DNA of 64,000 bases from a virus (taxonomy: Duplodnaviria; Heunggongvirae; Uroviricota; Caudoviricetes). The notes below the pieces were generated by a model that made no database searches, had not been told where the DNA came from, and was given only the letters and a program-made list of their open reading frames with translations. The translations under genes and the position numbers were made by a program. The DNA lies in the IMG/VR virus record IMGVR_UViG_3300020048_000080. One strand, written 5' to 3'. Positions 18,826 through 20,316 of the stretch are shown in pieces. Each line of letters begins with the position of its first letter. Positions within the stretch are counted from its first letter, which is position 1.

Positions 18826-20316
18826 ATGGAATGTAAAAAAGATTTAGGTTGTCTTTTTATAAAATCAATTTTCAATAATTCAGAGATGTATTCTGTACTC
18901 GTTGATAAATCTGGTATAGTTGAATATTGTTCTGATAAATTTAAAAAATTTTTTGGTAATATAGATATTATAGGTAAAAAACTCTCAGAATTTATTAGCC
19001 CACCAGCATATGAAGAAATAAGAAAAATTATTTTAGAAGTACTTTTTACATCTAAACAAATTGAAAATGATGTTCTTTTTAATGATAATGCTTATTATAA
19101 AATTATTGCATATCCTATTTTTGATAGTAATGATATAAATAAGGTATCTAATATAGTTTTGACTGCATTTAATATAACACAAAGTAAAAAATTACAAATA
19201 GAAAATGAAGAATTAAAAAAGAAATTAGAAGATAGCAATTCAATTAAATCTATATTTTTATCTAACATTTCACATGAACTAAGAACACCAATGAATTCAA
19301 TTATAGGTTTTTCTCAATTATTATTGGAAGAAGATAATAGAGAACAATTAAATAGATTTTTAAAAACAATAAATTCAAATGCTAAATATTTAGATGAACT
19401 ATTAAGTAATATTTTAGATTATGCAAAAATAGAAAGTAATGAGTTTGATATACTTTATGAAAATTTTTCATTAAATGATTTATTAGAAGAATTGTATAAT
19501 ATATTTGAAGATGTAAATTATAGAAAAAATTTAGATTTTGTAAAATTGGAGTTTAGTAAATGTAAGGATAGAAAAATAATTTCTGATTATTTAAGATTAA
19601 AACAAATTTTATTTAATTTAATCAGTAATTCAATCAAATTTACTGAAAAGGGTTATATAAAATTATCATATAAAGAATGTCATGATTCAATAATTTTTAA
19701 AATTGAAGATACTGGAATAGGTATACCAGAAGACAAATTAGAATTTATTTATGATAGATTTTGGCAAAATGATAGTTCAAGTATTAAAAAATATAGAGGC
19801 ACAGGATTAGGATTATCTATAACAAAGAGTCTAGTTGAAATGCTTAATGGTGAAATATGGGTAAAATCAAAATTGGGAGAGGGTACAAAATTCTATGTTA
19901 AAATCCCATTAGAAGAAATTAAACAAGAACTAGTTATAGTAAAAACCAAAGATAAAATTAGTTTTTCAGGAAAAACTGTTCTAGTTGTAGATGAAATACC
20001 TATCAACTATTCTATGTTAACTATATACCTTAATTCATTGAATATAAATATGTTATACACTTATACAGGTGAAGACGCGATTAATATTTTTAAAAAACAA
20101 AAAGATAAAATAGATCTAATAATAATAGATATGAATTTACCAGATATGGATGGTGATGAATTGGCTAATAGACTAAAAAAAGAAGATGAAAAATGTATAA
20201 TTTTATCAAAATCTGGTACATCTCATAATAAAAATGAAAATATAAATAAACATTTTAAGAAACCAATTAATAAAAACAAACTAATATCTGTATTAGAAAA
20301 TATATGGCAAAAATAG
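18826..20316 (+). CDS. hybrid sensor histidine kinase (PAS-like sensor, HisKA, HATPase_c, C-terminal receiver domain)
   Basis: H-box 'SHELRTPMNSIIGF'; G-boxes 'IEDTGIGIP' and 'GTGLGLSITKSLVEMLNGEIWV'; receiver 'VLVVDE...IIIDMNLPDMDG'. Confidence 0.75.
   Translation: MECKKDLGCLFIKSIFNNSEMYSVLVDKSGIVEYCSDKFKKFFGNIDIIGKKLSEFISPPAYEEIRKIILEVLFTSKQIENDVLFNDNAYYKIIAYPIFDSNDINKVSNIVLTAFNITQSKKLQIENEELKKKLEDSNSIKSIFLSNISHELRTPMNSIIGFSQLLLEEDNREQLNRFLKTINSNAKYLDELLSNILDYAKIESNEFDILYENFSLNDLLEELYNIFEDVNYRKNLDFVKLEFSKCKDRKIISDYLRLKQILFNLISNSIKFTEKGYIKLSYKECHDSIIFKIEDTGIGIPEDKLEFIYDRFWQNDSSSIKKYRGTGLGLSITKSLVEMLNGEIWVKSKLGEGTKFYVKIPLEEIKQELVIVKTKDKISFSGKTVLVVDEIPINYSMLTIYLNSLNINMLYTYTGEDAINIFKKQKDKIDLIIIDMNLPDMDGDELANRLKKEDEKCIILSKSGTSHNKNENINKHFKKPINKNKLISVLENIWQK

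Follow-up and report, generated by a model that had tools for sequence, protein, structure and literature searches.

Hybrid sensor histidine kinases of the ArcB, TorS, BarA and LuxQ type share a core composed of a dimerization and histidine phosphotransfer domain (DHp, HisKA), a catalytic and ATP-binding domain (CA, HATPase_c) and a fused receiver (REC), with all catalytic boxes present. Hybrid kinases normally need a histidine phosphotransfer (Hpt) protein and a terminal regulator. In ThkA, VicK/WalK, YF1 and the HK853 core, a PAS-helical linker-DHp-CA arrangement occurs without a fused receiver, and a separate cognate regulator is encoded adjacent to the kinase. The cytoplasmic hybrid kinase ShkA of Caulobacter has, besides its fused receiver, an extra pseudo-receiver; it is gated by cyclic di-GMP and signals via a dedicated Hpt protein (ShpA) to TacA. 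Phages are usually thought to read the state of their host via small repressors or borrowed quorum-sensing receptors and not via classical two-component sensors. In this work, a hybrid sensor histidine kinase gene was analysed which lies on a stretch of 64,000 nucleotides (nt) of the IMG/VR virus record IMGVR_UViG_3300020048_000080, referred to below as the window. The gene (positions 18826 to 20316, plus strand) is an ATG-to-stop open reading frame (ORF) of 496 amino acids (aa). Of interest is an orphan sensor kinase that is conserved throughout a clade of Mahaphage-related megaphages and occupies a fixed operon position; the protein family itself is known.

An earlier note on this DNA, made from its letters and ORFs, had described a PAS-like N-terminal region, HisKA, HATPase_c and a fused REC domain in a phage-like context. 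The Pfam annotation which it proposed as a check was performed, and all four domains were confirmed above their gathering scores: (i) PAS_9, aa 24–119 (34.2 bits, cutoff 27, E = 3e-8); (ii) HisKA, aa 141–204 (72 bits, cutoff 26.9, E = 4e-20); (iii) HATPase_c, aa 254–363 (104 bits, cutoff 26.4, E = 1e-29); (iv) Response_reg, aa 385–490 (56 bits, cutoff 30.2, E = 5e-15). With E-values as low as these the assignments are not due to chance, and the architecture reads PAS, signalling helix, DHp/HisKA, CA/HATPase_c, receiver. On the plus strand of the window, the PAS sensor domain as defined by PAS_9 and the modelled fold corresponds to positions 18883–19179 (aa 20–118), the signalling helix with DHp/HisKA to 19180–19437 (aa 119–204), the CA domain with its N, G1 and G2 boxes to 19459–19914, and the receiver to 19975–20307 (aa 384–494; D389/E390, D435, S461, K479). 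The motifs quoted in the earlier note were located as well: HELRTP forms part of the H-box SHELRTPMN (aa 149–157) with the phospho-acceptor H150 at nt 19273–19275, GTGLGLSI is the G2 box (aa 325–332), which follows the G1 box DTGIG (aa 295–299), and DMNLPDMDG (aa 435–443) starts with the receiver phospho-acceptor D435 at nt 20128–20130. No transmembrane segment was detected in the protein (maximal 19-residue Kyte-Doolittle mean, 1.18), and lacking any hydrophobic segment the kinase is predicted to be cytoplasmic and soluble. Pfam did not find an Hpt domain within the protein, and neither a LOV Cys motif nor a heme His was recognised in its PAS domain. Biochemically the protein thus appears to be of a known kind, namely a standard class I (HisKA-type) hybrid histidine kinase with a predicted conventional chemistry.

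Conservation was determined in an alignment of 49 family sequences. Invariant in all of them were H150, E151, T154, N264, D295, G297, G299, F312, G325, G327, G329, D389 and P480. The catalytic His and Asp, on which the earlier note had made its reading depend, are intact: H150 is conserved in 49 of 49 sequences and D435 in 48, with E in the remaining one. E390 and K479 were each found in 45 of 49 sequences, and position 461 was S or T in 41. Conserved PAS residues are Y62, R66, K67, F74, T75 and P97, among which the Arg66-Lys67 pair on the main PAS helix is invariant. Mean pairwise identity was 74% for the DHp domain, 69% for CA, 53% for the receiver and 39% for PAS, the domain that diverges fastest. 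Functional sensor kinases normally show such a contrast between a conserved transmitter and a diverging sensor, and the same pattern places both the kinase part and the receiver under purifying selection. The reading as a pseudokinase or pseudo-receiver was rejected on the basis of this selection and of the conserved catalytic residues, and the kinase is predicted to be catalytically competent. E151 and T154 belong to the HExxT motif, a feature of HisKA kinases linked to phosphatase activity.

An AlphaFold2 model of the kinase built on 49 homologues had a mean predicted local distance difference test score (pLDDT) of 79.5. In this model the PAS fold (aa 20–118) is confident (pLDDT ~90) and consists of five strands (aa 22–27, 31–35, 79–84, 90–99 and 107–116) and a flanking helix (aa 59–75). 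A single long helix (aa 118–165) runs into the DHp domain, the CA domain is modelled with the usual disordered ATP lid, and the receiver (aa 384–494) is again confident (pLDDT ~90). Foldseek searches of the PDB with the model retrieved the PAS-kinases WalK, VicK, YF1 and ThkA, the HK853 core (template modelling score, normalised to the target, 0.80; root-mean-square deviation, 3.3 Å) and the hybrid kinase ShkA. These matches agreed with those of a profile search against PDB sequences.

Comparison with the described systems places the kinase among them without equating it with any. The best partial NCBIfam matches were TorS, ArcB, LuxQ and BarA (E = 5e-78 to 3e-65 over aa ~90–495), all of which failed their equivalog cutoffs (bits/cutoff: TorS, 263/676.5; ArcB, 256/838; LuxQ, 249/1200; BarA, 221/890). 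Scores so far below the cutoffs mark the protein as a hybrid kinase of generic type, orthologous to none of the named sensors. Unlike these four proteins, the kinase has neither a transmembrane or periplasmic sensor nor a C-terminal Hpt domain, carries one cytoplasmic PAS domain, is about half their size and is encoded by a phage. The PAS-helical linker-DHp-CA arrangement is shared with ThkA (3A0R), which aligns by sequence over profile positions 25–373, and with VicK/WalK (4I5S, 9A5D), YF1 (4GCZ) and the HK853 core (2C2A/3DGE), whereas the fused receiver and the lack of an adjacent cognate regulator set the kinase apart from them. ShkA (6QRJ) has the same combination of cytoplasmic location and fused receiver and was matched both by Foldseek (477 aligned columns) and by PDB sequence; unlike for ShkA, no Hpt or regulator partners were found for the phage kinase. 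The nearest named cellular relatives are dCache-HisKA-HATPase-REC kinases of Marinifilum (~810 aa), which are 39–41% identical over ~75% of the protein. Like the phage kinase, they terminate directly behind the receiver, and their genes are not flanked by one for an Hpt protein or regulator; they differ by an extracytoplasmic double-Cache sensor in place of the cytoplasmic PAS domain and by their chromosomal location, and their placement as sister group is weak (38 of 100 bootstraps).

A search of 5.8 billion proteins identified approximately 75 clusters with 42–64% identity to the kinase, all of which are metagenome-only. Most members have a length of about 500 aa, and some of 650–750 aa contain an extra PAS domain. 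Beyond this family, identity dropped sharply to 41% or less, and the matches were named bacterial kinases. With a profile of the DHp-CA-receiver core the family scored at least 428 bits and all other proteins at most 326 bits. Neighbour-joining analysis of 209 sequences, 70 of them from the family, recovered the family as monophyletic in 99 of 100 bootstraps; its neighbours were hybrid kinases of Bacteroidota (Marinifilum, metagenome-assembled genomes (MAGs) of Bacteroidales, Breznakibacter) together with kinases of other huge viral contigs of low guanine-plus-cytosine (GC) content, a grouping recovered in 38 of 100 bootstraps. No close cellular relative was present among 185,579 GTDB species (bacterial and archaeal, one genome each): across most of the protein no match exceeded ~30–35% identity, a value that rose to at most 41% when the kinase core was considered by itself, and the matches were scattered taxonomically.

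In IMG/VR, ten family loci with 44–60% identity were detected, one of them on an uncultivated viral genome (UViG) of 501 kb. These matches came from an alignment-based scan, a single-protein scan of IMG/VR with the kinase having yielded none. The same scan, which covered 2.9 million contigs, returned 243 related stretches, a lower bound given its restrictive patterns. The kinase also matched kinase-like PHROGs families of unknown function (phrog_20458, E = 2.5e-90). Matches to the kinase obtained by tblastn in INPHARED were mostly short or located in mislabelled bacterial sequences, for example Salmonella whole-genome shotgun contigs of 0.5–0.7 Mb and fragments of 'Listeria phage LM 4-14-1'. 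Because many of these records are mislabelled bacterial sequences, raw kinase counts in 'phage' records overstate the frequency. The view of the earlier note that two-component genes are rare in phages is broadly right, with the number of IMG/VR stretches to be read as a minimum and most INPHARED matches to be discounted.

Other viral kinases are known or were encountered in the searches. Phaeoviruses such as EsV-1 encode several hybrid kinases of unknown function (PMC11890097), and giant-virus MAGs contain kinase-like genes (PMC13524828). Three giant-virus MAG contigs (L074, L075, L085) were among the distant IMG/VR matches. The hybrid kinases of eukaryotic giant viruses are ~30% identical, fall outside the family and belong to unrelated viruses of eukaryotic hosts. 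Kinases of other huge phages (~737–756 aa; LR756501 and IMG/VR contigs of 422–675 kb) are likewise PAS-containing hybrids of low-GC genomes with 32–34% identity, but they are longer, have no thymidine kinase (TK) or 135-aa ORF neighbours and lie outside the monophyletic family. The words kinase, two-component and sensor are absent from the main text of Al-Shayeb et al. (PMC7162821), and a survey of jumbo phages reported only a divergent receiver that was never linked to a kinase (PMC7824862). No paper on this kinase family or on two-component kinases in huge, jumbo or mega phages was found in the literature searched, the coverage of which is incomplete, so that novelty is unproven.

The genomic position of the kinase gene was compared between independent contigs from JGI, ENA and Logan (501, 531, 102, 86 and 121 kb and smaller). 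The TK gene is located directly 5' of the kinase gene in 10 of 10 family loci examined. An ORF of ~135 aa follows directly 3' in the nine loci that reach past the kinase gene; the remaining contig (L014) ends just after it. The syntenic block includes, in this order, genes for S1, NusG, a RelB-like protein, in some cases a DUF6939 protein, TK, the kinase, an ORF of ~135–141 aa, a CCA-adding enzyme, an RNaseH-like protein and a Metallophos protein. Across the syntenic contigs identity was 44–61% for the kinase, 50–60% for TK and 47–65% for the 135-aa ORF; it was higher for S1 (68–85%) and for a 600-aa protein (64–78%), which means that the kinase evolves faster than these two and at about the rate of TK and the 135-aa ORF.

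Both synteny and phylogeny bear on the idea that the kinase is a passenger gene newly captured from a host, or the product of a chimeric assembly, with no phage-specific role. Such an origin would fit the abundance of bacterial histidine kinases and the many 'phage' database matches that are clearly bacterial contamination. Against it, the same operon position recurs on contigs derived from different samples and assemblers, the family is monophyletic and has no close cellular relative, the catalytic residues are invariant, and the GC content of the gene (22%) fits that of its surroundings (23–26%). Synteny and phylogeny effectively refute this explanation, to which we attribute a very low probability. 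The kinase instead appears to be a member of a phage-specific, vertically inherited family and not a stray host gene. Such a family with fixed synteny makes a genuine role in infection much likelier than a passenger gene.

The GC content of the window ranges from 22 to 36% and is ~25% over most of its length. Coding density is ~93%, and 110 non-overlapping ORFs are intact under code 11, only about one quarter of which have a Pfam match; in addition to genes described elsewhere in this text, those matched include genes for an NAD-dependent DNA ligase, an RNA ligase and adenylosuccinate synthetase. When the DNA was compared with 50,697 phage records, matches of at least ~500 bases were obtained only with LR756500, LR756501, LR756503 and LR756504, the others being short matches to TK. 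The 'uncultured phage' records matched have sizes of 462–735 kb (including 735,411, 642,428, 636,363 and 634,780 bp). Within phage records, the highly conserved 600-aa protein encoded at 10199–12001 has relatives only in LR756500–LR756504 and LR745206. LR756501 (735 kb) contains homologues of 29 of the 110 ORFs, with a median identity of 40% and scattered without synteny. The largest genomes described by Al-Shayeb et al. in 2020 all belong to the Mahaphage clade with predicted Bacteroidetes hosts (PMC7162821), and, to judge from their matching sizes, the 'uncultured phage' records presumably represent those genomes. Contigs carrying the kinase family are classed as viral (IMG/VR UViGs of up to 501 kb). 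Judged from shared genes, the window would thus represent a low-GC megaphage lineage related to Mahaphage. The phage-like context stated in the earlier note is in this way specified by genes shared with genomes of 462–735 kb and with IMG/VR viral contigs.

A different assignment of the window would be to a reduced low-GC cellular genome, of a symbiont or of the candidate phyla radiation type, in which a kinase would be unremarkable. It contains genes of cellular type (S1, NusG, ClpB/ClpP/ClpS, adenylosuccinate synthetase, peptide deformylase and tRNAs), and among the homologues of the 135-aa ORF, one bears the NCBI label 'Candidatus Dojkabacteria'. Yet the proportion of ORFs with a Pfam match is low, the best relatives are curated genomes of huge phages, IMG/VR calls the contigs viral, and gene types such as those named have all been described for huge phages (PMC7162821). 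Neither rRNA nor a ribosomal protein operon was found in the window, and a terminase or capsid gene was likewise not found within its 64 kb. We regard a cellular origin as highly improbable. Within the megaphage lineage, the hosts are probably Bacteroidota, as suggested by translation signals and by the presence of Bacteroidota kinases among the nearest cellular relatives: Shine-Dalgarno-like motifs precede 2% of the 110 ORFs, which is below the background of 6%, and ORF leaders are G-depleted with 50–69% A, the pattern expected for translation initiation of the Bacteroidota type. The phage also encodes its own S1.

Potential signalling partners were searched for in six-frame translations of the window and of the regions within 10 kb on either side of 14 family loci. 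A receiver hidden Markov model (HMM) derived from 136 receiver sequences (E ≤ 10) matched only the receiver of the kinase itself, so that no second receiver was present in the window or at the 14 family loci. For Hpt proteins, an HMM was derived from 21 sequences with P0114 as seed; it detected none in the window, none at the 14 loci and none along the complete LR756501 (735 kb), the best E-value being 0.12. Pfam searches of the remaining ORFs of the window, concatenated as pseudo-proteins, revealed neither Hpt nor HisKA nor receiver domains, and no terminal response regulator with an output domain was found in the window or at the 14 loci. The assertion of the earlier note that no partner response regulator is encoded nearby thus holds for the 64 kb window by receiver HMM, Hpt HMM and Pfam alike. 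Of the orphan response-regulator or Hpt proteins for which it proposed a search elsewhere in the genome, none was recovered in the window or at the 14 loci, and the relative LR756501 encodes a stand-alone receiver. In the clade of the window the kinase is the sole two-component gene detected so far, and some megaphages have a kinase and a single-domain receiver.

In the mechanism that we favour, the N-terminal PAS domain would sense a cytoplasmic cue in the infected cell, and the signalling helix would relay the signal to DHp. The CA domain would then phosphorylate H150, from where the phosphoryl group would move to D435 of the fused receiver. As no Hpt or regulator is detectable on the phage side, phosphoryl flow most likely joins Hpt or response-regulator proteins of the host. 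This flow could run forwards or, as permitted by the invariant HExxT motif, backwards with the kinase acting as phosphatase; in either direction, expression of host or phage genes would be tuned over the lengthy infection cycle of a phage with a genome of ~500 kb. As a whole, the reading as a competent, soluble, vertically inherited hybrid kinase of a Mahaphage-related megaphage which senses a cue and exchanges phosphoryl groups with host Hpt proteins or regulators is given an even chance.

Several points weigh against this reading. The host-directed step is pure inference, as the searches yielded neither a host partner nor a ligand or output. The Hpt profile was made from just 21 sequences of a poorly conserved domain and could miss a divergent Hpt protein, and the window covers 64 kb of a genome of ~500 kb or more, in the rest of which an Hpt protein or receiver could lie. 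The nearest cellular relatives, the kinases of Marinifilum, are also orphan hybrid kinases with no adjacent partner (one adjoins PorP/SprF), and context therefore gives no clue to the pathway. The receiver model shows no alpha-4 helix between beta-4 (aa 459–463) and beta-5 (aa 475–478), which might mean a non-canonical output surface; the spacing between the conserved Ser/Thr and Lys of the receiver is 15–23 residues over the kinase family. Finally, the stand-alone receiver of LR756501 implies that some megaphages, at least, possess a pathway internal to the phage.

The latter point leads to a scheme in which H150, either directly or competing with the fused receiver, phosphorylates a stand-alone receiver encoded elsewhere in the phage genome and acting by protein-protein contacts, the fused receiver serving as regulator or sink. 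LR756501 encodes one hybrid kinase (36007–38277, 737 aa, 34% identical, in a different neighbourhood) and one stand-alone receiver of 123 aa (350281–350652, minus strand; locus L175) with intact DD/D/T/K residues, but no Hpt protein. This type of receiver forms a well-conserved family of 64 clusters with a conserved neighbour of its own. However, neither the window nor the 10 kb flanks of the 14 family loci contain a stand-alone receiver, a scan of IMG/VR for receiver motifs led to six loci of which none is on a contig of the kinase family, the 501 kb contig included, and the kinase of LR756501 belongs to a different branch and context. The phage-internal scheme is considered rather unlikely for the clade of the window.

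The stand-alone receiver family (~122 aa) itself comprises 64 metagenome-only clusters with 53–92% identity on contigs of up to 735 kb, with relatives at the loci L183–L192. Its motifs DYxLPYKNG and PIILETGE are invariant, and the usual neighbour is an RNase_H_2/PolB-exonuclease-like gene. It was not described in the literature searched. The six IMG/VR loci mentioned above were obtained with the patterns DY[KR]LPYKN and PIILETGE, which did not match the 501 kb contig. L191 and L192 were considered as closer relatives and rejected, since their likeness is due to a shared conserved RF-1-domain gene.

The kinase might also be a self-contained switch or phosphate sink, with a receiver that either auto-regulates the kinase or drains a host Hpt protein by reverse transfer and thereby silences a host phosphorelay. 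Such a role would agree with the invariant HExxT motif (the link of which to phosphatase activity is established knowledge), with the lack of any Hpt or output domain among our findings, and with the fact that ArcB and LuxQ, two of the best partial NCBIfam matches, are known to run in reverse. On the other hand, strict conservation of the ATP-binding boxes indicates selection on kinase activity and not on phosphatase activity alone, and direct evidence of any host target of a sink is lacking. We judge this role to be distinctly unlikely. If the downstream steps are ranked, exchange with a host Hpt protein or regulator would come first, direct phosphorylation by H150 of an unlinked, LR756501-type receiver second, and an auto-regulatory or sink role third. 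The suggestion of the earlier note that the kinase could sense host physiology or hijack host phosphorelays would thus be one reading among others, as a self-regulating receiver, a phosphate sink or an unlinked phage receiver fits the findings equally well.

The host-exchange reading was also extended towards a specific cue. The kinase could be a virus-owned switch whose PAS domain reads a metabolic or energy cue of the infected Bacteroidota cell, such as nucleotide or redox status, and which rewires a host phosphorelay or controls phage development with no need of a phage-encoded Hpt protein or DNA-binding regulator. This proposal, which is tentative and somewhat doubtful, draws on the invariant Arg66-Lys67 pair and the constant pairing with TK.

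In a deep clade of ~500 kb phages (~70 clusters), a canonical kinase has thus been kept intact at one operon position. This retention implies that the virus itself has been selected to sense its environment or the interior of the cell, and suggests that megaphages sense conditions inside the host cell. With a clonable, soluble protein of 496 aa, a concrete entry is available to what megaphages monitor during infection and to the host pathways that they reach. If the partner were a host Hpt protein or regulator, a new route of host takeover would be at hand; if the receiver were the end point, the kinase would be an unusually minimal signalling module; and if it were a virus-owned switch, a two-component sensor used by a bacteriophage for decisions during infection would for the first time be functionally defined. 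The interest of the kinase lies in its genomic context and evolutionary retention and not in new chemistry, and would rise with a demonstrated host target or ligand.

The kinase gene is the second of a compact three-gene unit. The TK gene (18250–18816, plus strand; Pfam TK, E = 5e-51) is the first, and its stop codon lies 9 nt upstream of the ATG of the kinase. The 135-aa ORF (20304–20711, plus strand), for which an all-helical model was obtained, overlaps the 3' end of the kinase gene including its stop codon by 13 nt and is followed by a convergent gene. Upstream, a strong bidirectional terminator-like hairpin (17774–17807; 15 pairs, then a T-run) closes the preceding unit; three terminator-like sites were found in total compared with 0.4 expected. 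The AT-rich 220-nt spacer (18029–18249, plus strand) in front of the TK gene likely contains the promoter region of the unit. Matches to sigma-70-like promoters were not above shuffled expectation, and such a scan is uninformative for this type of host. Hairpin and spacer before TK, the tight junctions and the convergent gene together delimit the unit.

Homologues of the 135-aa ORF make up a family of 105 metagenome-only clusters, including the single one with the Dojkabacteria label. The ORF had no match by sequence in Pfam, PHROG, PADLOC or the PDB, and its model, although helical, is poor and unreliable (pLDDT 67; predicted template modelling score, 0.34). A function as the missing Hpt protein or partner was rejected, as there is no His among the 25 invariant columns of the family and the Hpt HMM gave an E-value of 6.5. 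In LR756501 a homologue of this ORF is located 660 kb from the kinase gene of that genome; being unlinked there, it indicates that the linkage of the two genes in the clade of the window may be simple synteny. Neither the kinase nor the ORFs around it, the 135-aa ORF included, matched a PADLOC defence model; TK gave only weak P-loop matches.

Further upstream, a RelB-antitoxin-like ORF of 91 aa (16929–17204; weak match, E = 2e-4) abuts the gene of the DUF6939 protein (17204–17788) with a stop/start overlap of 1 nt, and the pair might constitute a toxin-antitoxin-like module. The DUF6939 gene shows the highest DNA conservation with LR756501/LR756503 (70% nucleotide and 67% amino-acid identity). 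In the syntenic 102 kb ENA contig (L006), a TnpB/Cas12f-like gene (5947–7161, minus strand; OrfB_IS605 and Cas12f1-like_TNB) is located between the genes for NusG and a radical-SAM protein; this insertion is absent from the window.

Accessory genes of translation and transcription in the window encode S1, NusG, the CCA-adding enzyme, peptide deformylase, an RF-1-domain (ArfB-like) protein and a tRNA-Leu cluster (14285–15451, 15703–16200 on the minus strand, 23448–24638, 39709–40146, 48473–48946 and 62366–63572). The cluster consists of five tRNA-Leu genes with four anticodons (taa twice, aag, tag and caa). A full Clp set is present with a ClpS adaptor (5838–6137), a ClpA/B/C-like double-AAA+ ATPase of 847 aa (6383–8926) and ClpP (53383–54066). 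An isochorismatase-family (nicotinamidase-like) ORF (3488–4162) next to a gene for nicotinate phosphoribosyltransferase (NAPRTase; 4385–5623) forms an NAD salvage-like pair. A PhoU_div/DUF47 protein is encoded at 54961–55617 (E = 1e-24), followed by a 274-aa ORF (55617–56441) with no Pfam match. DUF47 proteins are usually paired with a PiT phosphate transporter in bacteria. In LR756501, homologues of the DUF47 protein and the 274-aa ORF are found at separate positions.

Two C-terminal motifs recur among the small ORFs of the window. The ending YNL is common to 12 ORFs (KYNL in 10), several of which begin with MKYLKTFE or MITxFKI. Eleven of them are small paralogues (91–179 aa), many of which lie in tandem such that stop and start codons overlap, and the twelfth is a highly conserved protein of 215 aa; they map to the regions 22476–26071, 31894–32232 (minus strand), 37762–38061 (minus strand), 41462–41749, 43077–43484 (minus strand) and 13546–14193. 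The shared YNL terminus could serve as a targeting or degradation tag. The basic C-terminal motif RK[LI]K[LI]xK[LI], for example RKLKLEKLNKS or RKIKLDKLNQ, occurs in four otherwise unrelated small ORFs (1497–1886, 39438–39728, 47245–47535 and 54066–54545).

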